From an uncultured delta proteobacterium (GTDB taxonomy: Bacteria; Desulfobacterota; Binatia; UBA9968): a stretch of DNA of 64,000 nucleotides. Position 1 is the stretch's first letter. Each line of letters opens with the position of its first letter. A model generated the notes under the pieces. The model made no database searches, was not told the DNA's origin, and saw only the letters and a list, made by a program, of their open reading frames with translations. The position numbers were made by a program, and so were the translations under genes. Where the stretch lies: contig CAVWLW010000033.1 of the NCBI GenBank assembly GCA_963755715.1, positions 256,001 to 320,000 of the forward strand. The letters run 5' to 3'. Shown here in pieces: positions 10,336-25,477 of the stretch.

Positions 10336-11469
10336 ATGATTAAGGCGTGGGACGCGGACGGGCATGTATCGGAATCCGAAGTGACGTTCTCGGACAAATA
10401 CTGGGATCTTAAATTGAAGGATCGCAGACCGAGCATCGTGGAGACCGGACCGGACGGGCCGCTCTACTGGATGATCGATACCCGCTCTTTTCCCGTGAGG
10501 AGCGGGCCCTATCAGCAAGCCGGCTTTCCCCTAAGCAAGAACGGCGTCGCGGCCAAAGTCACGCCGGGAATCAGCCCTCATGATCCCGTCGAAAGCGCGG
10601 AAATGCGCTCGGTCAAGGCTCGCGTCGAACAATTGGACCGGGAGAATACCGCGCTTCAAGTGATCTATCCCACGATGTTTCTCTCCTATCCGATCACCTA
10701 TGATCGGGAATTGGCCGTGGCGATGATGCGCGCCTACAATAGCTGGGTCGCCGATCTCACCAGCCAATATCCGGACCGCCTAAAGTGGGTCACGGTTGTC
10801 GATCCCGTCGATCCGCAGGCATCGGTTCGGGAAATCGAGCGAGGCAAGGAGCGGGGAGCCGTAGCCGTGATGCTTCTCGGCGTCACCGGAGATGTGCGAA
10901 TCGACGACCCGCCCATGGAGCCGATCTGGGCCGCGGCCAACGACACTGGGCTTCCCGTCGCGGTGCATACCGGACACAGCTTTCGCGCCCTCGGCCAGGT
11001 TAACGACACGCACCATGATAAGACGGCGCTATCCTTTTGGCTGACCGTGCAGTTCGCCTTCCACCGTGTGATCTCGAAAGGGATCGCCGACCGCTACCCG
11101 AATTTAAAGATTGCGTTTCTCGAAGCCGGATGTTCCTGGGTCCCGGCTTTGGTGGAGCGGATCGAAGAATACAGCGGCTTTCCCGGAGCGCGGGCGGGAG
11201 TTGATTTTCACAGGGGTTACACCGGCAAGCATTTGCCCAAGGAATACATCGAGCGCGGACAGATTTATTTCGGCTTCGAGGTCGATGAGAAACTTCTCCC
11301 GTTCGCCATCGAAGAGTTCGGCGACCAGTGCTGGGTTTACGGCTCGGATATCCCGCACGGAGACCGCCTCTACGGCGCGGTCGATGTTTTCCTCAAGCGA
11401 GACGATATCAGCGAGGAGAGCAAGCGAAAGCTGCTCGTTGATAACACAGCGCGCTTTTACGGGCTCTAA
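10336..11469 (+). CDS. Amidohydrolase_2 family protein
   Basis: DADGH, RAYNSW, PVAVHTG, AFLEAGCSW, YGSDIPHGD, DNTARFYGL; RBS GGAGG. Confidence 0.9.
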   Translation: MIKAWDADGHVSESEVTFSDKYWDLKLKDRRPSIVETGPDGPLYWMIDTRSFPVRSGPYQQAGFPLSKNGVAAKVTPGISPHDPVESAEMRSVKARVEQLDRENTALQVIYPTMFLSYPITYDRELAVAMMRAYNSWVADLTSQYPDRLKWVTVVDPVDPQASVREIERGKERGAVAVMLLGVTGDVRIDDPPMEPIWAAANDTGLPVAVHTGHSFRALGQVNDTHHDKTALSFWLTVQFAFHRVISKGIADRYPNLKIAFLEAGCSWVPALVERIEEYSGFPGARAGVDFHRGYTGKHLPKEYIERGQIYFGFEVDEKLLPFAIEEFGDQCWVYGSDIPHGDRLYGAVDVFLKRDDISEESKRKLLVDNTARFYGL

Positions 11470-15408: not shown

Positions 15409-16440
15409 ATGGCGAAAACGCTCGGCGTATTTTTGCTCCTGATCATTATCTCGGTATCGCTGGTCTCGGCGCGTGCTGCCTCGGTCGAGGACTTCTACAA
15501 GGGCAAAACCATCCAGTTCGTCGTCGGCGGCACCGCCGGCGGCGGCTATGATACGTACACCAGGCTGATCGCGCGCCACTTCCCTCAATACGTTCCGGGC
15601 AAACCGTCCACTGTCGTTCAAAATATGCCTGGAGCCGCCATGCTGATCGCGGCGAATTACACTTATAATAGTGCTCCCCGCGACGGCACGGTCATCGGGA
15701 ATTGGTCCGGCCCGCTTATTTTACAGCACATGATGGGCAATCCGGCGGTGCAATTCGAGGGACGCAAGTTTGGTTGGCTCGGTATGCCGACAGCGGATGC
15801 GCTGGTGTGCATAACGACTGAACGCAGCGGGATCAGAACGGCAGAGGATTGGCGCAAGGCTAAAACCCGCGTCAAGCTCGGCGCGATTGGCCCCGGCACC
15901 AGCGGAACCGACGACACCAAGATTCTCGCCGCCGCCACGGATTTCCCGCTGCAGCTGATCGAGGGCTACAAGGGCACCGCCGACATCAGGATTGCCGCGG
16001 AAACCGGGGAAGTCGACGGCACCTGCGCCTTTGGCTGGCAATCGGCGAAGGTGACGTGGGCCAACGCGCTGAAGGCCAAACAGGTGCATGTCGTGCTCCA
16101 GACGATGCTCGAGCCCCATCCTGAGCTGAAGGGTGTTCCTCTCGCCGTCGATTACGCCAAGACGGACGAGGGGAAAAAACTCCTGCGCATCGCCAGCGAG
16201 CTTTACGGCAAGCAGAGACTCTATTCTCTCCCGCCCCAAGTGCCCGAGCAGCGTCTGCGAACACTGCAAAAAGCTTTCATCAGTGTTCTGAAAGATCCTC
16301 AGCTTCTGGCCGAGGCGGAAAAGGCGAAACTCGAGATCGACCCGATCGACGGACCCGGCGTGGAAAAGATGGTCAACGGCTTGTATGAAATCGAGCCTGC
16401 CATCGTGAGTCGAGTGAAACAGATACTCGAGTCAAAGTAG
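15409..16440 (+). CDS. TctC/Bug-like solute-binding protein
   Basis: FYKGKTIQFVVGGTAGGGYDTYTRLIARH..VPGKPSTVVQNMPGA; GYKGTADI..AETGEVDG; RBS GAGGAGG. Confidence 0.9.
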   Translation: MAKTLGVFLLLIIISVSLVSARAASVEDFYKGKTIQFVVGGTAGGGYDTYTRLIARHFPQYVPGKPSTVVQNMPGAAMLIAANYTYNSAPRDGTVIGNWSGPLILQHMMGNPAVQFEGRKFGWLGMPTADALVCITTERSGIRTAEDWRKAKTRVKLGAIGPGTSGTDDTKILAAATDFPLQLIEGYKGTADIRIAAETGEVDGTCAFGWQSAKVTWANALKAKQVHVVLQTMLEPHPELKGVPLAVDYAKTDEGKKLLRIASELYGKQRLYSLPPQVPEQRLRTLQKAFISVLKDPQLLAEAEKAKLEIDPIDGPGVEKMVNGLYEIEPAIVSRVKQILESK

Positions 16441-16460
16441 GACGATAGCCAGCAGGCAAA

Positions 16461-16686
16461 GGCAAGCATCTGCCCAAGGAAAATACATCGAGCGCGGACA
16501 GATTTATTTCGGCTTCGAGGTCGATGAGAAACTTCTCCCGTTCGCAATCGAAGAGAGGCGAAGTGCTGGGTTTATGGCTCCGATATCCCGCAAGGAGACT
16601 GCATCTACGGCGCGGTCGATGTCTTCCTGAAGCGAGACGCGATGTCAGCGAGGAGAGCAAGCGAAAGCTGCTCATTGACAACACGC
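16461..16686 (+). pseudogene. Degenerate copy of the 3' end of amidohydrolase 10336..11469 (matches 11224..11450)
   Basis: Long identical stretch TACATCGAGCGCGGACAGATTTATTTCGGCTTCGAGGTCGATGAGAAACTTCTCCCGTTCGC; otherwise mostly synonymous changes plus indels. Confidence 0.92.
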
Positions 16687-16738
16687 TGACTCATCAATGG
16701 GGCTCAGGCCAACGTCAAACTTTTAAGAGGAGGGTATC

Positions 16739-17530
16739 ATGTGTATTGTCAGTACAGTCGGGCTCGGGGGGCGAAACGATTTGACCGATGTGACGGTATT
16801 TCAGATCCTTTTCAATCTAAATGTTCCTCGTTTCCCCGATCCAAAGCCCGAGAAGCTCGCTACCGATGGACGGATCGGTTCTAAGACGATTGACGCCATC
16901 AAGAACTTCGAGACTAAGGTCATGCGGCTCGCGAGCTCAGATTCCATTGTGGCGCCGGGCGATGCAACCGTGGCGGCCCTTCTGAATGGTCTGGTGCCGG
17001 GTCCATCGAGAGAAAAGCTCTCGGTTGTGATGCCGCGCGCGTTGCTGGACAAGATCGATCGTTATTACGATCCGCTCGTCGCAAGCATGAAGAAGTATCA
17101 CATCACGACCGACCTTCGAATGGCTCACTTTATTGCCCAGATCGGTCACGAAACCGCTTCTTTCCTCTGGGCCGAAGAGCTTGCCGATGGGTCTGCATAC
17201 GAAGGGAGACGGGATCTTGGAAATACGGATCCCGGTGACGGTAAACGTTTCAAGGGGCGCGGCCTGATCCAGCTGACCGGACGCGCGAATTACACGGAGT
17301 ACAAGAAAGTCGCGGGGTTTGACTGCGTGGCCGAACCAGGACGAGTCGCTTCGGACGCGTCCGTTGCTGTCGACGTTGCCTGCTGGTATTGGGACAGGCA
17401 CAAGCTAAATGATCTTGCCGACAGAGACGACGTGAAAGCGATAACCAAAGCGATTAACGGTGGTTTCAACGGACTCGATGATCGCGTCCAGTATCTCTTC
17501 AGAGCCAAGGCCGTGCTCGGCATCAAGTAG
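16739..17530 (+). CDS. Glycoside hydrolase family 19 (lysozyme/endolysin-like) with N-terminal peptidoglycan-binding-like domain
   Basis: STVGLGGRND..DV..FQILFN..DGRIG..TIDAI..F; AHFIAQIGHET..EELADGSAYEGRRDLGN..GDGKRFKGRGLIQLTGRANY; ITKAINGG.NGL.DR. Confidence 0.9.
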   Translation: MCIVSTVGLGGRNDLTDVTVFQILFNLNVPRFPDPKPEKLATDGRIGSKTIDAIKNFETKVMRLASSDSIVAPGDATVAALLNGLVPGPSREKLSVVMPRALLDKIDRYYDPLVASMKKYHITTDLRMAHFIAQIGHETASFLWAEELADGSAYEGRRDLGNTDPGDGKRFKGRGLIQLTGRANYTEYKKVAGFDCVAEPGRVASDASVAVDVACWYWDRHKLNDLADRDDVKAITKAINGGFNGLDDRVQYLFRAKAVLGIK

Positions 17531-17531
17531 A

Positions 17532-18230
17532 ATGTACCGGCCCTGGGTAGCGCTTGCCGCCGCGACATGCTGCCTCCTTCTTGGCGCATGCCGCGGCAAA
17601 GAAGACAGTGTTTCGAGCTCTTCGCCGTCCAGCCAGGCGGCAGGGACCAAAACAAAAGCGGCAAACGCCACGACGTTCCGCCTTCGCATCCATCCCACGC
17701 TCCCCGAATATTCATTCACGTTGGTGAGTGACCGATCCAGCGACAACAGCCAAACGTTGCAGGTGAAAAGAATCGAGATCCGGCGCGGAGGGGAAACTGA
17801 ACCTTTTCAGATCATTGAAGGACTTGACGCCGCCACGCCACTACAGCTGGTCCCGCCGCTTTCTATGGTCGATATGAATTTTGATGGTTACGGCGACATA
17901 CGTCTGATCGAGCTGCAGCCCGCCGGACCGAATGTTCCCTACCTCAACTGGTTGTTTGACCCAGCATCGGGCCGCTTTGTTGAAAGTCGCGCGCTCAACG
18001 AGATCACCTCGCCGCAATTCGATGCCGCTACCCGAGAGATTCGATCGGAATGGCGTGACGGCCCCACGCGCTACGGAACCGACATATACGTTTATAAGCA
18101 GGGCGAGCCGGTACTCGTGCGCAAGGAATCAAAAGAATACCGACAACCGGGCGTCTACACCTTGCGAGTCTCACAGTTGGTTGATGGCGCCTGGAAAACC
18201 GTCGAGCAACGCGAAGTGCGGGAGCCTTGA
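17532..18230 (+). CDS. Lipoprotein, XAC2610-like putative hydrolase-immunity protein
   Basis: Starts 1 nt after the GH19 stop; lipobox LLGAC; DMNFDGYGDI Ca-loop-like motif; GPNVPY..WLFDP..GRF. Confidence 0.7.
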   Translation: MYRPWVALAAATCCLLLGACRGKEDSVSSSSPSSQAAGTKTKAANATTFRLRIHPTLPEYSFTLVSDRSSDNSQTLQVKRIEIRRGGETEPFQIIEGLDAATPLQLVPPLSMVDMNFDGYGDIRLIELQPAGPNVPYLNWLFDPASGRFVESRALNEITSPQFDAATREIRSEWRDGPTRYGTDIYVYKQGEPVLVRKESKEYRQPGVYTLRVSQLVDGAWKTVEQREVREP

Positions 18231-18290
18231 GGCGCTGCGACCGACGTAGCAGCGCATTATCCCGCCAGATGGTCAAGATTCATGTCGGAT

Positions 18291-18490
18291 AAATCGGTGT
18301 CAGACTTGCCTAAGTCTATTAACTTCTGGGGAAGACGATGCCGCGTCACCCGCGAGTTCATGCCGAAGGACTGATCTATCACGTGATGGCGCGGGGCAAT
18401 GACGGGCAGAAGATTTTTCTCAGCCAAAGCGACTATCAGGCATTAATCGAAGCCCTTCGGACCGTGCGTCGTCCTCGGGACAAGACGTAA
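18291..18490 (+). mobile_element. Left inverted end plus 5' stub of a RAYT-like Y1 transposase (copy 1)
   Basis: AAATCGGTGTCAGACTTGCCTAAGTCTATTAACT, then ATG 18338 MPRHPRVHAEGLIYHVMARGNDGQKIF..DY, a Y1_Tnp N-terminus truncated before the HUH motif. Confidence 0.85.
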
Positions 18491-18492
18491 AC

Positions 18493-18551
18493 GGGTCAAG
18501 TCCGCTGTTGCTAAAAACGTTAGGACAGAAAGCAAAAAGCGGACTTGCCCC
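18493..18551. repeat. REP-like long hairpin
   Basis: GGGTCAAGTCCGCTGTTGCT ... AGCAAAAAGCGGACTTGCCCC inverted arms. Confidence 0.65.
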
Positions 18552-18579
18552 CATTTCTGCCGCCTTTTCCCAACGGGCA

Positions 18580-21500
18580 CTAAAGAGATTGATCCGCGAA
18601 TTGGGGCTGTGCCGGCGGCGTGGTGCTGGAACCGATCAATTGCGCGCCGACGAGCTGTGAGTAGAGCCCGTTTTGGGCAAGAAGGAGAGTGTGGGAACCC
18701 TGTTCGGCGACGCGACCTTGGTCGAGAACAACGATATGGTCGGCGTCGCGAATCGTCGAGAGACGGTGAGCGATCACCAGAGTGGTGCGCCCTTTGGCGA
18801 GATGGGCAAGCGCCTGATGGATCAATTGTTCGTTGACGGCGTCGAGATGCGATGTGGCCTCGTCAAGGATGAGGACGGGAGCATTTTTGAGCAGGGCCCT
18901 GGCGATGGCGAGTCTCTGCCGTTGTCCGCCGGAAAGCTGAATGCCACGCTCGCCGACCACGGTATCGTAGGAAAGCGGCAGCTCGGTGATGAACTGGTGC
19001 GCGTTAGCGCGCTGCGCGGCTTCCTCGATGGCTTCGTCGGTGGCTTGCGGCTGGGCCAAGCGCAGGTTTTGCCGAATGGTGGTGTTGAAAAGGTAGGTCT
19101 CCTGGGAGACCAGAGCAATTCTTGTTCGCAGGTCATCGAGAGTGAACGCCCGCAAATCGTTTCCTTCCAACAAAATTTTGCCATGGGTGGGGTCCCAGAA
19201 GCGCAGCAGCAGCTGCGCACAGGTGGTTTTACCGGCTCCGGAAGGACCGACGAGAGCAACGGTTTGTCCGGGCTCGATGCGAAATGAAACATCTTGCAGC
19301 ACCGGCGACTCGTGCGGACCGTACGTAAAGCTCGTGTTGTCGAAAATCACTGACGGAGGCCGGTCGGGGGTGGTCGGCAGCGAAACCATCCCAGCACCGT
19401 CCGTCACGGGGATCGGTTCATCCTTGATGGCAAAGATCCGCCGCGCGGAAGCCAGAGTCTCCATGAGTTCTTTGAACGTGCGGGTTATCTCACTCACCGG
19501 GCCGAAAGCCGCCATAGCCAAGACCGTTGCCAGTGGCAGGACCGCGCGGGTCATTTCCCCCTGAGACACGAGCCAAACGCCGGTTACCAGCACCGCCAAC
19601 GCGCCGATGCCCGTGAGGGTCTCGTTCAAGCTTGCTTGCCGAGCCTGTTCCGTATGAAACCGAACTTGCGCCGTGGCGACGCGCCAACTGTTGCGCGACA
19701 GCTCAGCGGTGAACCGCTTCTCACAGCCTAAGCCCACCACTTCTCGCAGGCCCTGAATGCCGTCGACCAAGTGAGCGTTGAGCTGCCCCATGGTTTCTCG
19801 TACCTGGGTTCCAAGCTGTCCGGAACGCTTCTGAAAAAACAGCGGCGACACGGCGACCAGCAAGAGGAAGGGAAGCAGAGCGGCGGCCAAAGGCCAGCCC
19901 ATCCAGCCGAGGAAAAAGAGAACCACACCAGGGACCAGAACGGCGACGAAAGCGGGCGCAATGGTGTGGGCAAAAAAGATTTCGATCAATTCGATATCAC
20001 TGCTGATGATGCTTACCAGGTCTCCTGAGCGGCGCTGCAACAGATAACCTGGGGCCAACGGATCCAAGGTCTGGTACATATCGATGCGCATCTCGGCGAG
20101 CAGCTGATAGGCCAGATCATGGGAGATCCAGAGTTCGACCCAGGACAGTAGCGATGTGGCCACAACCGCCAGCGCGAGCAACAGAACCGGCCAAAAAATC
20201 TCGCCGTGCCGGATCACCTGTCCGACCACGAGCGCGCCCGCAACACCGACGCCGATCAAAGCCGCCTGGTATAGAACTCCACTCGAAAATGCCAACGTCG
20301 TCTTCACCGCAAAGGGACGCACCAGCCCGAGCAAGCGCTGCAAGGTCGTACGAATCGATAGCGGTCGTACCGTGTTGAAAGTTTTATCCGTCGTGCTTTG
20401 AGCGGCGCTTCCGACCGGCCCCAGCCCATGACCATTATCAAAACCATTGGCAACGGAAGCCGCCTGCGCGGCGATTTCTCCGTCGGATGCGTTTTGTTGG
20501 CCGGCCATAAGGTCAGCGTAAACACCATTGGCTTGAAGCAGCTCGGCATGAGAGCCCGACTCGACGATCTCACCTTGCTCGATCACCAAAATGCGGTGCG
20601 CGTCGATCACGCTCGACAGACGGTGGGCGATAATCAATGTTGTCCGGCCTTCCATCAGCCGGTTCAGAGCCTCCTGTATAATCGCCTCGTTCTGCGCATC
20701 AACGCTGGAGAGCGCTTCGTCGAGCACCAGAATCGACGCATCCTTGAGCAGAGCGCGAGCGATGGCGACACGCTGCCGCTGACCGCCGGAGAGTCGGGCG
20801 CCGCGCTCGCCGACGAGAGTTTCGTAGCCCTTGGGCAACGCACTAATAAAATCGTGCGCGTTGGCGGCGCGGGCGGCGGCTTCGATTTCCTGCTGCGTCG
20901 CCTCGGGTTGGGCAAGGCGCAGGTTCTCCGCCACGGTGCCGTAGAAAAGATAAGTGTCTTGAGCGACCACTGCGACATGACGGCGCAGAAAACTGAGGGA
21001 CAGATGGCGCAGGTCTCGATTGCCAAGAAAGATACGGCCCTTTTGCGGATCGACGAAACGGAGCATCAGTGACACGACAGTCGATTTGCCGGCTCCGCTC
21101 GGCCCGACAATCCCGAGTTTCTCGCCCTTGCGCAGCGTGAAGGAAATATCGCGGAGCGCCGGGCGTAGGCCGTTCTGATAGCCGAAGGTCACATTCTCGA
21201 AGCGTATCTCGGGCTCAAGGAGACCCGGCGTGACACCATTGGTTTCATGATAGTTCCCGTCTTGAACCTCAATCGGCGTAGCCAGCAGCGTGAAAATCCC
21301 TTCGGCCGACGCCGTGGCCAAGAAGCCTTGGTGGTAGAGGATGATCATCTCGCGCATCGGGCGAAAAACTTCCGCGCCCAGAAGCAAAAGAACCACGAGG
21401 GCGCGCAGGTCGAGCTCGCCGTTGGTTACCTTGAATGCGCCCCAAGCCAGGGCCGCAGCGCTACCTGCCGTAATGCCGAAGGTACCTACCCCACTAGACA

Positions 21501-22221
21501 TGAGATTGACGGCGAGCACCCCCATGGTGGCGCGGTAAACCTGATGCGCCCTGTCCGCGAGGATGTTACCCCAATTACGGCTCTGGCCGAAAATCTTGAG
21601 CGTCGAGATGCCCTGCATGCTGTCGAGGAAATCCGCGCTCAAAGCGCCGTAGGCGGCGCGGCGTCGACGGCTGCTCTCTCGACTCGTCCAAAAAAAGATG
21701 GCCGGAGCCACCAAAGTGAAGACAGCGAAGCACAGGAAAATAAAACCTATGGAGAGATCGATGGAGGCCATGAGAAAGAAAATAATGATCGGAGCCAATC
21801 CGGCGACCATCATCTGCGGAAGAAACTGGCCAAAAAAAACCTGCAACCGTTCGACACCTTCGCCCAATATGGTCAGCACGTCACCGGTTCGGCTTTGGTC
21901 GAACTGTCCCGGTCCCATGGCAAGGGAATGCGCATAAAGTTGTCGTCTGATTTCGACTTTGACCCGCGCCGCGGTTTCCTGGCTGATCCCATCCCGGAGA
22001 AACTGCAGGAGCCCGCGCAACACGGTGCAACCGATGATTCCGCCGATCGGCAAGATCAGGGAGGAAAATGGTTTGCCTAAGAGAACGCCCGCAATGACCA
22101 GGCCCGAAAGGGTCAACCGACCCAACCCCGCGAATACAGCGCATAGACCGACAAACGCAGTGGCGACAATGCGGCTTCTGACACCCTGAGTCAGGCGAAG
22201 TAGGCGTTTATCGAGATACAT
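18580..22221 (-). CDS. Fused ABC exporter (TMD-NBD-TMD-NBD), CydDC/YbtPQ-like
   Basis: Two complete NBD motif sets (GPSGAGKS/T, LSGGQRQR, L.LDEA, IAHRLS) each after a TM domain; start MYLDKRLL. Confidence 0.9.
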   Translation of the reverse strand: MYLDKRLLRLTQGVRSRIVATAFVGLCAVFAGLGRLTLSGLVIAGVLLGKPFSSLILPIGGIIGCTVLRGLLQFLRDGISQETAARVKVEIRRQLYAHSLAMGPGQFDQSRTGDVLTILGEGVERLQVFFGQFLPQMMVAGLAPIIIFFLMASIDLSIGFIFLCFAVFTLVAPAIFFWTSRESSRRRRAAYGALSADFLDSMQGISTLKIFGQSRNWGNILADRAHQVYRATMGVLAVNLMSSGVGTFGITAGSAAALAWGAFKVTNGELDLRALVVLLLLGAEVFRPMREMIILYHQGFLATASAEGIFTLLATPIEVQDGNYHETNGVTPGLLEPEIRFENVTFGYQNGLRPALRDISFTLRKGEKLGIVGPSGAGKSTVVSLMLRFVDPQKGRIFLGNRDLRHLSLSFLRRHVAVVAQDTYLFYGTVAENLRLAQPEATQQEIEAAARAANAHDFISALPKGYETLVGERGARLSGGQRQRVAIARALLKDASILVLDEALSSVDAQNEAIIQEALNRLMEGRTTLIIAHRLSSVIDAHRILVIEQGEIVESGSHAELLQANGVYADLMAGQQNASDGEIAAQAASVANGFDNGHGLGPVGSAAQSTTDKTFNTVRPLSIRTTLQRLLGLVRPFAVKTTLAFSSGVLYQAALIGVGVAGALVVGQVIRHGEIFWPVLLLALAVVATSLLSWVELWISHDLAYQLLAEMRIDMYQTLDPLAPGYLLQRRSGDLVSIISSDIELIEIFFAHTIAPAFVAVLVPGVVLFFLGWMGWPLAAALLPFLLLVAVSPLFFQKRSGQLGTQVRETMGQLNAHLVDGIQGLREVVGLGCEKRFTAELSRNSWRVATAQVRFHTEQARQASLNETLTGIGALAVLVTGVWLVSQGEMTRAVLPLATVLAMAAFGPVSEITRTFKELMETLASARRIFAIKDEPIPVTDGAGMVSLPTTPDRPPSVIFDNTSFTYGPHESPVLQDVSFRIEPGQTVALVGPSGAGKTTCAQLLLRFWDPTHGKILLEGNDLRAFTLDDLRTRIALVSQETYLFNTTIRQNLRLAQPQATDEAIEEAAQRANAHQFITELPLSYDTVVGERGIQLSGGQRQRLAIARALLKNAPVLILDEATSHLDAVNEQLIHQALAHLAKGRTTLVIAHRLSTIRDADHIVVLDQGRVAEQGSHTLLLAQNGLYSQLVGAQLIGSSTTPPAQPQFADQSL

Positions 22222-22299
22222 GACGCAAAGACGACATTCGTAATACCAATTGAAGATTCGTAACACCGCAGCCGTTTTGCTGTCAAAGCCCGCTTGAAT

Positions 22300-25284: not shown

Positions 25285-25477
25285 AAATCGGTGTCAGACT
25301 TGCCTAAGTCTATTAACTTCTGGTAGGGAGAGACGATGCCGCGTCACCCGCGAGTTCATGCCGAAGGACTGCTCTATCACGTGAAGGCCCGTGGCAATGA
25401 CGGGCAGAAGATTTTTCTCAGCCAAAGCGACTATCAGGCCTTAATCGAAGCGCTTCGGACCGTGCGTCGTCCGCGGG
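25285..25477 (+). mobile_element. Left inverted end plus 5' stub of a RAYT-like Y1 transposase (copy 2)
   Basis: Near-identical to 18291..18479; homology ends at the same point (CGTCGTCC.CGGG). Confidence 0.85.

Follow-up and report, generated by a model that had tools for sequence, protein, structure and literature searches.

The window, by which we mean the whole 64,000-nucleotide stretch of DNA that was analysed, carries on its forward strand a compact pair of genes. The upstream gene (16739..17530, + strand) encodes a signal-less GH19 peptidoglycan hydrolase of 263 aa (P0001), which combines a PG_binding_1-like domain with a GH19 muramidase domain; the downstream gene (17532..18230, + strand) encodes a lipoprotein of 232 aa belonging to the XAC2610 family (P0002), a predicted inhibitor according to its family model, its fold and a complex prediction. 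A ribosome-binding site read from the sequence (GAGGAGG, 16727..16733, + strand) precedes the hydrolase gene, with the ATG 5 nt further on, and the stop codon of that gene (TAG, 17528-17530) is followed by a single base and then by the ATG of the lipoprotein gene at 17532. A GTG start at 17460 was considered for the lipoprotein and rejected, because homologues start at the position equivalent to the ATG. The two genes, their coordinates, the 1-nt gap and the sequence features had all been described in a first-pass annotation of this DNA, and all are present as it described them.

The pair lies at a break in synteny, between two gene remnants. On its left, the non-syntenic stretch is bounded by a copied 3' end of an Amidohydro_2 gene (16461..16684), 91% identical to the amidohydrolase gene's own 3' end (window 11224-11447); in a relative from the same genus (G014), synteny stops at about position 16459 and a similar remnant is present too. 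The right edge is a repeated element (18291..18479) that includes a 5' fragment of an IS200-like/RAYT gene (ORF 18338-18490, 50 aa, downstream of the lipoprotein gene). Further copies of this element lie on contigs C33 (window 25285-25477), C41, C50 and C36, a full-length relative of the RAYT fragment, consisting of Y1_Tnp and DnaA_C, is found on contig C23, and synteny with another genome (G027) picks up again at 18565. These two edges correspond to the gene-end scar and the RAYT left end between which the pair had originally been placed.

When 52 of the 63 greedy ORFs in the window were scanned with Pfam, no holin, spanin, phage, VgrG/PAAR or VirB genes were found among them, in agreement with the initial impression of a pair lacking such neighbours, and PADLOC matched neither protein to a known defence family. 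A defence-island reading of the surroundings, for which a patatin-like phospholipase and a second neighbour common to two loci (L005 and L041) were the sole grounds, was dropped. A promoter and terminator scan of 16300-18700 returned no promoter-like signal and one terminator-like signal on the wrong strand, numbers no higher than in shuffled sequences, and has no weight either way. Contigs from RNA libraries of four studies are at least 99% identical to the DNA within both genes, a weak hint that both are expressed, as DNA carry-over is possible; the stretches of either gene that these contigs leave uncovered carry no evidential weight.

An endolysin-type enzyme

The sole Pfam family in P0001 is GH19 (PF00182, 39.2 bits against a cut-off of 25.5). 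The catalytic domain (residues 91-263, 17009..17527, + strand), recognised by its cleft residues and its PDB matches, finds its best solved relatives among phage endolysins (9ms7, E 6.8e-35; 9eoi, E 3.3e-26), with plant chitinases at E 1e-8 or weaker, and in PHROGs P0001 matches the endolysin family phrog_181 (E 3.1e-58). Residues 1-90 (16739..17008, + strand) have no Pfam match at E values up to 1, but they are modelled as a three-helix domain (pLDDT >90) that Foldseek aligns to the peptidoglycan-binding domain of 1lbu (76 columns, probability 0.96), and the homologous stretch of a distant relative (L010) matches PG_binding_1 (PF01471, E 2.1e-7). A hydrophobic segment is absent, the maximum Kyte-Doolittle mean over 19 residues being 1.24; a SAR or signal-anchor N-terminus was rejected on this value and on the N-terminal sequence itself (MCIVSTVGLGG followed by charged residues).

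The enzyme family has a length of 262-266 aa throughout and is strongly conserved: across 49 sequences its mean column identity is 81%, and the N-terminus MCI(V/A)xSVG is conserved. The catalytic glutamate pair, E138 and E147, is spaced nine residues apart, and in the same 49 sequences all of the cleft residues (this pair, I239, H137, Y154, Q178, T180, N240 and R249) are invariant or at least 90% conserved, the last six being invariant. This cleft was matched by motif, by eye, to that of PaGH19Lys, an enzyme reported as a proven muramidase that is inactive on chitin (PMC12329726). By analogy with its closest solved relatives, and in view of its peptidoglycan-binding domain, P0001 would cleave the MurNAc-GlcNAc bond and not chitin. 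In the model the chain stops three residues past the last GH19 helix. The sequence thus supports a GH19 peptidoglycan hydrolase of endolysin type that has no XVIPCD-like tail, and both the signal-less two-domain layout and the lack of a tail had been correctly recognised at first pass.

A lipoprotein of the XAC2610 family

P0002 begins with a signal peptide that runs to the lipobox LLGAC (17532..17591, + strand; read by eye), with an Arg at position +2 and a lipobox cysteine, C20, conserved at 90% or more in 56 lipoprotein sequences. A linker modelled at low confidence follows, to about residue 44 (pLDDT <50 for residues 21-43), in a model whose overall pLDDT is 83.9. Residues 111-197 match the NCBIfam model NF047539 (XAC2610_fam) with 82.4 bits against a cut-off of 35, and P0002 is the only gene of this family in the genome. 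Searching the PDB by sequence returned XAC2610 only (4QTQ, E 0.002; one entry, one chain), so that a solved complex of such a pair is absent there, and the same structure is the sole Foldseek match of the model with E <0.001 (E 1.6e-8, TM 0.59/0.65, 213 columns, 17% identity). A loop of the calcium-binding type, DMNFDGYGD (residues 114-122, 17871..17897, + strand), aligns to residues 151-159 of XAC2610, and its residues D114, N116, F117, D118 and D122 are invariant in the 56 sequences. Judged by family model and fold, P0002 truly belongs to the XAC2610 family, and the likeness first noticed by eye holds up in both the HMM and the Foldseek comparison. No PHROG family corresponds to P0002; phage and plasmid collections yielded three weak matches of chromosomal type (Salmonella STM0050-like) and one Burkholderia match, and give no support for carriage of the pair by phages or plasmids.

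The predicted complex

A complex prediction had been suggested at first pass as a check on the pair, and the model that resulted argues for binding: P0001 and P0002 together score 0.91, a value that 116 of 157 solved complexes and 2 of 215 mismatched pairs attain, and the best of three controls scores 0.01. The runs share at least 94% of contacts, with a partner pLDDT of at least 89. Predicted contacts on the enzyme side are H137-E138, E146-E147, Y154, Q178-T180 and I239-N240. On the lipoprotein side, the loop LQPAGPNVPY (residues 128-137, 17913..17942, + strand) is predicted to enter the enzyme cleft, making its contacts through its own residues 128-136 and showing its lowest predicted errors at 131-134, and R175 touches E147, so that the conserved PAGPNVP loop and R175 sit on the catalytic cleft. 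Within the loop, conservation is 90% or higher at A131, G132, P133, N134, P136 and Y137; over the whole interface, conserved lipoprotein positions are weakly and not significantly enriched (11 of 33, against 43 of 187 overall; p about 0.09).

The loop aligns with the inhibitory loop of XAC2610 (residues 165-173; PMC10933484), in which a conserved tyrosine, Y170, makes contact with the catalytic Glu of the enzyme. Because Y170 of XAC2610 aligns to P133 of P0002, the contact chemistry would differ from that of XAC2610; Y137 of P0002 is conserved and lies outside the confident contacts. On this model P0002 is predicted to bind P0001 via the active site, and most likely plugs it.

Distribution and mobility of the pair

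The sample comprises eight non-redundant paired loci (L027-L031 and the window being counted as one), against some five to six unpaired ones. In all eight the same two genes stand side by side, and their pairing is not a matter of chance. Over seven co-located pairs, the pairwise identities of the two proteins co-vary (Spearman 0.77, from 21 non-independent comparisons). The distribution is sporadic: the XAC2610 family occurs in 2 of 61 relatives, the DNA of the pair in 2 of 31 searched genomes of the genus, at different loci, and close relatives of the pair are found in Burkholderiales and Woeseiaceae, including one cultured carrier, Pseudorhodoferax sp. Leaf267. All genomes except that of Leaf267 are metagenome bins, and absences are therefore provisional. 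Together with the synteny break, this pattern bears out the earlier description of the pair as mobile and supports, at the level of sequence comparison, its horizontal spread as a unit.

The enzyme also occurs alone. Full-length relatives at 63-77% identity (L006, L036, L039, L040, L041 and L042) have no lipoprotein gene beside them, yet match P0001 in architecture and catalytic residues; in the one whole genome searched among these loci, no gene of the XAC2610 family was found, and in the tree the unpaired enzymes fall among the paired ones. That such close relatives live without the lipoprotein implies that the enzyme need not endanger its maker and that the inhibitor is dispensable in some lineages. 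Co-occurrence, on which the first-pass annotation had made its proposal depend, consequently holds as adjacency in the eight loci but not as an obligatory association, given the six loci with an enzyme by itself. Its other suggestion, that the lipoprotein is captured immunity, is at odds with the presence, right beside it, of the cognate enzyme, whose active site is intact.

In more distant relatives (45-50% identity; L010-L012) the enzyme carries a fused M15 peptidase, and its gene stands downstream of one for a membrane protein that we call holin-like by its position and two hydrophobic segments only; these enzymes look like those of lysis cassettes. The name 'GTA-type holin' for this upstream ORF was discarded, as Pfam returned nothing and PHROGs only phrog_1544, a family of unknown function.

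Secretion and delivery systems

VirB4 and TssC were searched for in six enzyme-bearing genomes, five of which carry the pair and one (G064) the enzyme alone, and an eCIS marker in the five pair carriers. VirB4 (PF03135) was found in none of the six and hence in none of the five pair carriers, including the present genome, which is 93.6% complete; TssC was found in two of the six, both of them pair carriers; and the eCIS marker Pvc16_N occurs in three of the five pair carriers, being absent from G008 and G062. In G008, at 99% completeness, VirB4, TssC and Pvc16_N are all absent. Neither TssC nor Phage_GPD was found in the present genome, which does have an eCIS-like locus on another contig, where the 21 ORFs scanned hold no lysis genes. 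Within the genus, the eCIS marker is present in 12 of 31 genomes, against 2 for the pair. No T4SS, T6SS or eCIS tracks the pair: the genome-wide search proposed at first pass was negative for VirB4 and TssC and positive for an eCIS-like locus that does not follow it.

Elsewhere, GH19-type enzymes and the inhibitor family do occur in such settings. In a T6SS cluster (L085), an XAC2610-family lipoprotein follows a VgrG-linked, GH19-like effector of 797 aa; fusions of GH19 domains to Phage_base_V or DUF4280 occur; and the T6SS effector TseP (8xcl) is among the structural matches of P0001. Orphan immunity genes resembling XAC2610, as well as T6SS-linked homologues, have been reported (PMC7400221).

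Comparison with known systems

The closest parallel is the X-Tfe/X-Tfi pair XAC2609/XAC2610 of Xanthomonas citri, in which a signal-less GH19 hydrolase is likewise followed by an NF047539 lipoprotein of the same fold, with a calcium-type loop in both and, in P0002, a loop at the place of the inhibitory one that is predicted to act likewise. The two pairs differ in several respects: P0001 has no XVIPCD tail and VirB4 was not found in its host genome; its peptidoglycan-binding domain precedes the GH19 domain, whereas in XAC2609 it follows; its GH19 domain is nearer to the endolysin 9ms7 than to the T4SS effector of S. maltophilia (7r6s, E 8.8e-13); P0002 shares only the low identity with 4QTQ given above and has a proline in place of Y170; and the hosts of the present pair are soil bacteria outside Xanthomonadales. 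Oka et al. (2024, PMC10933484) showed that the protection which XAC2610 affords against cis-intoxication does not depend on the T4SS, and that where XAC2610 is missing the signal-less XAC2609 damages its own cell with neither T4SS nor XVIPCD; such a role of the inhibitor suits a pair with no T4SS.

With the GH19 endolysins encoded by phages and in tailocin clusters (PWe2, 9ms7; PaGH19Lys, 9eoi; SPN1S, 4ok7), P0001 shares a catalytic domain at up to 39% identity, the glutamate pair and cleft residues, the lack of a signal peptide, and a modular build with a cell-wall-binding domain. Unlike them, it has no adjoining holin, spanin or phage genes, an inhibitor gene being its neighbour instead, and its family is a fixed two-domain protein in the chromosomes of several bacterial classes. 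T6SS effectors of GH19 type (TseP and the effector of L085) resemble the pair in having a lysozyme-like domain of this type and a downstream periplasmic immunity protein, which in L085 is of the XAC2610 family as well, but they are long and stand beside VgrG and the T6SS core, and P0001 has no such domain or neighbour.

The inhibitors PliI/PliC/MliC and Tsi1 are, like P0002 as modelled, periplasmic proteins or lipoproteins that put a loop into the active site of a peptidoglycan hydrolase, although a sequence relation to P0002 is undetectable. Pli/Mli proteins guard against foreign (host) lysozymes and are not known to be encoded with their target. The topology of XAC2610 is described as common to PliI and Tsi1 (PMC10933484).

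A probable enzyme-inhibitor operon

The computed results, namely family membership, an intact active site, the predicted binding mode, mobility and no linked machinery, are accommodated by an operon that encodes an enzyme and its dedicated inhibitor and that probably serves, independently of any machine, to protect the producer's own wall. A GH19 muramidase of endolysin origin, with its peptidoglycan-binding domain at the N-terminus, would be made in the cytoplasm with no export signal, and the lipoprotein, given the stop, single base and start between the genes, would be translationally coupled to it. The lipoprotein would be exported and tethered via a flexible linker of about 25 residues, most likely to the outer membrane on its periplasmic side, where the lipoprotein's calcium-stabilised, beta-propeller-like body may block the muramidase by placing the PAGPNVP loop and W174-R175 in the cleft, over E138/E147. 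Its job would be to shield the producer's cell wall from enzyme arriving in the periplasm, whether leaked across the inner membrane from the cell's own cytoplasm, as in XAC2609/XAC2610, or coming from neighbouring cells. The pair would spread horizontally as a unit and need no T4SS, T6SS or eCIS. That the enzyme also leaves the cell and acts against other bacteria, as the label 'antibacterial module' given at first pass implies, may be so.

A bolder version of this reading, which we regard as possible but doubtful, makes the pair a self-contained, machine-free module: the muramidase would enter the periplasm by an intrinsic route like that of XAC2609 and be titrated there by the calcium-dependent lipoprotein, and the whole would be a mobile lysis switch or an addiction or kin-selection element, not secretion cargo. 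If true, this would be the XAC2609/XAC2610 puzzle in its smallest natural form, free of a T4SS signal, and the cultured carrier Leaf267 would make the passage of signal-less wall hydrolases across the inner membrane directly testable.

Four other explanations have to be weighed against that of an operon for wall protection. The likeness to lysis-cassette enzymes in L010-L012, with their M15 fusions and holin-like neighbours, suggests a domesticated lysis enzyme kept as a controlled autolysin, with the lipoprotein as its safety catch: on failure of the envelope, titration of the inhibitor or its loss of calcium, the cell would lyse and release contents such as eCIS particles, DNA or vesicles. 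PaGH19Lys of P. aeruginosa is said to act in native cell lysis (PMC12329726), and this genome has an eCIS-like locus whose scanned ORFs offer no lysis genes of their own. Yet a holin stands beside the pair in no locus, tblastn of the L010/L011 holin-like proteins against this genome finds nothing, and the eCIS marker is both missing from two carriers and far more widespread in the genus than the pair, which leaves the autolysin unlikely. Somewhat less likely still is a diffusible bacteriocin of the pesticin type, a muramidase freed by lysis or leakage of some producer cells that enters related bacteria through their outer membrane, with the lipoprotein serving as the producer's immunity. The immunity protein of pesticin, Pim, resides in the periplasm. 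Pesticin of Yersinia does combine a muramidase toxin derived from a phage lysozyme with an immunity protein and needs no secretion machine (PMC3390615), and a stand-alone muramidase with a periplasmic immunity gene, a sporadic mobile distribution and a conserved enzyme N-terminus would be in keeping with it. Pesticin, however, brings dedicated domains for receptor binding and translocation, and its fold is like that of T4 lysozyme (PMC3390615), whereas P0001 consists of GH19 and a peptidoglycan-binding domain: residues 1-90 form one small PG_binding_1-type domain that is also found inside lysis-type enzymes (L010), the N-terminus is ordered (pLDDT 92-97), and there is no room for the other domains. 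The strong conservation of the enzyme is unlike that of arms-race bacteriocins, and some lineages have kept the enzyme and lost the immunity gene.

An ordinary effector-immunity pair, delivered by a contact-dependent or contractile system whose genes lie elsewhere (a T6SS, an eCIS or another), would account for the T6SS cluster of L085, the orphan and T6SS-linked XAC2610 homologues (PMC7400221), the TseP match, the fusions to Phage_base_V or DUF4280, and the eCIS-like locus of this genome; we consider it improbable, as carrier, adaptor and signal domains are all missing from the enzyme, its family keeps a fixed length, no machine is common to the carriers, and the nearly complete G008 lacks all three markers. 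The best enzyme families are phage endolysins and gene remnants lie on both flanks, which might point to the decaying remnant of a prophage lysis cassette, in which the lipoprotein would be spanin-like or unrelated and the pairing without function. This is very improbable: both genes are intact, conserved across classes and adjacent in all eight loci, the lipoprotein belongs to no PHROG family and passes the XAC2610 model, the predicted complex far outscores its controls, and other phage genes are absent among the ORFs scanned.

Implications

We regard the pair as a new stand-alone variant of the GH19 effector/XAC2610 immunity pair. Immunity proteins are usually taken as markers of a weapon. 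The protection that XAC2610 gives in cis, independently of the T4SS (PMC10933484), means that an immunity gene does not imply one, and a pair that no machine tracks fits an XAC2610 that guards the cell from its own enzyme and not from attacking neighbours. No description of stand-alone GH19/XAC2610 pairs was found in the literature searched; Dataset EV1 of Oka et al. (PMC10933484), with 429 XAC2610 homologues, may already include the present subfamily.

A GH19 muramidase and an XAC2610-type inhibitor, then, travel jointly through soil bacteria of several classes with no T4SS, T6SS or eCIS tracking them. The XAC2610 fold would accordingly be a general inhibitor of GH19 wall hydrolases that is found in three settings: with a T4SS effector, as known from the literature, with a T6SS effector, as in L085, and standing alone, as here. 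If the predicted complex is correct, P0002 would be a natural protein inhibitor of GH19 endolysins, and the pair may offer a minimal system for learning how signal-less peptidoglycan hydrolases reach the periplasm.

The gene pair

The layout reported in the first-pass annotation is confirmed: a 263-aa ORF (P0001, 16739-17530, + strand), preceded by the ribosome-binding site GAGGAGG (16727-16733, +), is separated by 1 nt from a 232-aa ORF (P0002, 17532-18230, +) that starts one base past its stop. P0001 was also correctly described as a signal-less protein with a GH19 part and a part resembling a peptidoglycan (PG)-binding domain. A sequence scan found no hydrophobic stretch, and GH19 is the sole Pfam family (39.2 bits vs a cut-off of 25.5). 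Residues 1-90, which Pfam does not recognise, form a small helical domain in the AlphaFold model (pLDDT 89.4) that Foldseek aligns over 76 columns with the PG-binding domain of 1lbu; Pfam does recognise PG_binding_1 in the corresponding part of a relative, L010. By sequence, the nearest solved phage endolysins (9ms7, E 6.8e-35; 9eoi, 3.3e-26; 4ok7, 2.5e-18) lie far ahead of plant and Streptomyces chitinases (1e-8 or weaker), and in PHROGs P0001 matches the endolysin family phrog_181 (E 3.1e-58); the model's fold matches are the same endolysins plus the T6SS effector TseP. Residues H137, E138, E147, Y154, Q178, T180, N240 and R249 are invariant across 49 relatives, and I239 nearly so; by motif they match the cleft residues given for PaGH19Lys, a demonstrated muramidase that is inactive on chitin and chitosan (PMC12329726).

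The assignment of P0002 as an XAC2610-like lipoprotein is likewise borne out. Its N-terminus is a lipoprotein-type signal (LLGAC), followed in the model by a low-confidence linker and an all-beta body. It passes the NCBIfam XAC2610 model NF047539 (82.4 bits, cut-off 35), matches XAC2610 by sequence at E 0.002, and has the solved XAC2610 structure (4QTQ) as its sole clear fold match (E 1.6e-8, TM 0.59/0.65). In the alignment the nearly invariant loop DMNFDGYGD, the DxNxDGxxD motif of the annotation, falls on the Ca-binding loop of XAC2610 (151-159), and the next loop, LQPAGPNVPY, on the inhibitory loop (165-173), whose key residue Tyr170 (Oka et al., PMC10933484) is aligned with P133.

Structure prediction of the two proteins together, as the annotation had proposed, gave a score of 0.91, against 0.01 for the best of three controls. 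Among solved complexes 116 of 157 attain this mark, and among mismatched pairs 2 of 215; the counts are only rough because our own alignments were used. At least 94% of contacts are common to the runs, with partner pLDDT of at least 89. A PDB sequence search with P0002 returned 4QTQ alone, a single chain, so no solved complex of this kind that the prediction could have copied came up there; the published complex of XAC2610 with XAC2609, its GH19 T4SS effector in Xanthomonas citri, is itself a prediction. Confident contacts involve P0002 residues 128-136 and 173-181 and P0001 residues 137-140, 146-149, 153-154, 177-184 and 237-242, and as predicted span the whole catalytic cleft. Conserved P0002 positions are only weakly enriched at the predicted interface (11/33 vs 43/187, p about 0.09). 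The model supports binding, and does not show it.

Distribution of the two genes

The genes are adjacent in the window and in a same-genus genome (G008, locus L004), a Woeseiaceae bin (L005), a Burkholderiales bin (L007), Pseudorhodoferax sp. Leaf267 (L008), metagenome contigs L032, L033 and L043, and five near-identical contigs (L027-L031). The expectation that they co-occur holds only in part: downstream of full-length enzyme relatives (63-77% identity) the lipoprotein gene is missing at L006, L036, L039, L040, L041 and L042, while at L034, L035, L037, L038 and L044 the sequence stops too early to judge. NF047539 was found in none of five further genomes with lone or fused enzyme relatives. 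Over seven co-located pairs, P0001 and P0002 identities co-vary (Spearman 0.77, 21 non-independent comparisons) and the lipoprotein evolves faster than the enzyme. Mean column identity is 50% for the lipoprotein and 81% for the enzyme. In a tree of 22 enzymes, restricted to loci with a full or near-full gene (L028-L031, L037 and L042-L044 omitted as duplicates or fragments), the 263-aa enzymes group in a well-defined clade (support 98/96); inside it L006 and L041, both unpaired, form the sister group of L007 and L008, both paired (99/100), and the lipoprotein has therefore been lost or gained more than once. Length is fixed in the closest family: of the best 120 matches, 113 measure 262-266 aa, and among the remaining seven, three fall below this range (239-247 aa) and two above it (285 and 287 aa).

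At L007 (890-2176), a 428-aa PG_binding_1 protein ends 7 nt past the start of the GH19 gene, suggesting a three-gene operon. Near the GH19 gene, L005 (6697-9518, with lipoprotein) and L041 (6316-9845, without) have two proteins in common, one of them a patatin-like phospholipase of a PADLOC effector family. A 903-aa protein whose start is TIR-like is also encoded at L005, and the surroundings may be a defence island.

The XAC2610 family itself is rare: NF047539 exceeds its cut-off in 4 of the 401 genomes sampled in the window's phylum, and in 7 of the 400 sampled in the Pseudorhodoferax class. At most of seven NF047539 loci inspected a GH19 neighbour is missing. One (L072/L085, G692:C26:34000-43698) lies inside a T6SS cluster, in the order TssM, PppA (PP2C phosphatase), PpkA (Ser/Thr kinase), VgrG, a protein of 797 aa whose C-terminal part weakly matches GH19, a 184-aa XAC2610-family lipoprotein, and an ORF of 181 aa whose N-terminus is signal-like; the inhibitor family is thereby tied to a T6SS effector. 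Barretto and Fowler (PMC7400221) also describe an orphan immunity gene resembling XAC2610, as well as homologues linked to T6SSs. A region ~35% identical to P0002 residues 71-206 occurs in the Salmonella enterica counterpart of STM0050 (AFYI01000001.1, L084, 5530-6753), a hypothetical protein that is conserved in enterobacteria and encoded between ispH and rihC.

Genomic setting and mobility

Among 31 genomes of the genus searched (the genus tallies count G005, flagged unpublished), pair DNA (~16727-18228) occurs only in the window's genome and G008, at unrelated loci and with 68% nucleotide identity. Synteny with G014 runs up to 16459 and resumes with G027 from 18565; the interval contains, in this order, 224 nt copied from the end of an amidohydrolase gene, the pair, and the 5' part of an IS200-like/RAYT gene, which is a repeated element. 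The scar and RAYT piece that had been annotated as flanks are both real: the Amidohydro_2 3' end (16461-16684) is 91% identical to 11224-11447, and the ~180-nt RAYT start (18291-18479) recurs at 25285-25477 and on contigs C41, C50 and C36, with a full-length relative (Y1_Tnp plus DnaA_C HTH) at C23:58643-59545. The RAYT-start copies are scattered over the genome, their frames mostly broken. Many genomes of the genus have pieces like 16461-16684 beside genes for solute-binding proteins, suggesting cassette-like shuffling of these transporter and amidohydrolase genes. Directly downstream, a fused double ABC exporter of 1228 aa (18580-22266, - strand; two ABC_membrane plus ABC_tran halves) is syntenic with G027 and so lies outside the inserted stretch.

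GC is not distinctive (pair 0.55-0.58, window 0.57). Close relatives come from records named 'Deltaproteobacteria bacterium', 'Candidatus Binatia', 'Betaproteobacteria' and 'Rhodoferax', and the stretch is present in many soil metagenome runs. Four studies have RNA libraries with contigs that match parts of both genes at 99% identity or more, only a weak hint of transcription since DNA carry-over is possible.

Possible roles of the pair

That no delivery machinery lies near the pair, as first annotated, stands for the 52 of 63 ORFs scanned in the 64-kb window, which holds transport, metabolic and envelope genes only. In the genome at large (7.4 Mb, 93.6% complete) the T4SS marker VirB4, the T6SS marker TssC and Phage_GPD were not found; an eCIS-like locus is present on contig C67 (~42,600-69,500; L087, L088). 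Across the five pair-bearing genomes, own included, VirB4 occurs in none, TssC in two and the eCIS marker Pvc16_N in three; in five further genomes with the enzyme, of which four carry the pair and one (G064) only the enzyme, the counts are 0/5, 2/5 and 2/5. All three are not found in G008 (99% complete), and within the genus Pvc16_N occurs in 12/31 genomes vs pair DNA in 2/31. These absences mean not found in the genomes searched, most of which are bins. The C67 locus comprises Pvc16_N, a sheath, two gp19-like tube proteins, CIS_tube plus LysM, a Phage_base_V spike, Tail_P2_I (baseplate), a CIS tape measure and an AAA ATPase, with a sigma-54 activator upstream; downstream is a protein of 739 aa that matches an APOBEC-like deaminase and is possibly a payload.

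The enzyme relatives at L010-L012 (45-50% identical) combine an M15 peptidase with the same kind of PG-binding domain and GH19 in one protein, preceded by a membrane protein of phage family phrog_1544; others, such as L015, lie in phage surroundings. The triple-domain hydrolase (Peptidase_M15_4, PG_binding_1, GH19; L010, 9545-10783, also L011 and L012) occurs in Plasticicumulans acidivorans and two gammaproteobacterial bins; the membrane protein directly ahead of it (212-235 aa) is holin-like by position, and P. acidivorans has a second, unfused enzyme copy (L009). Longer proteins with this GH19 type (at most 57% identity) add partners including M23, NlpC/P60, GH25, amidase, LysM, C39-like plus DUF4231, a Phage_base_V spike domain and DUF4280. 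Rival readings of the pair, each less likely than the one below, are a pesticin-like bacteriocin, a controlled autolysin, cargo of a distant machine and, least likely, a prophage remnant.

The best-supported reading is a stand-alone, cognate muramidase-inhibitor operon built on an endolysin-type enzyme. The toxin-immunity proposal is partly supported, by an XAC2610-family lipoprotein beside a GH19 enzyme and by predicted binding, but the pairing is not universal. Relative to XAC2609/XAC2610 the inhibitor is homologous and the logic analogous; unlike that system, the window pair stands alone and its enzyme is of endolysin type. According to Oka et al. (PMC10933484), XAC2610 guards against the cell's own signal-less enzyme, independently of the T4SS and XVIPCD, and an immunity gene without a weapon therefore has a ready rationale.
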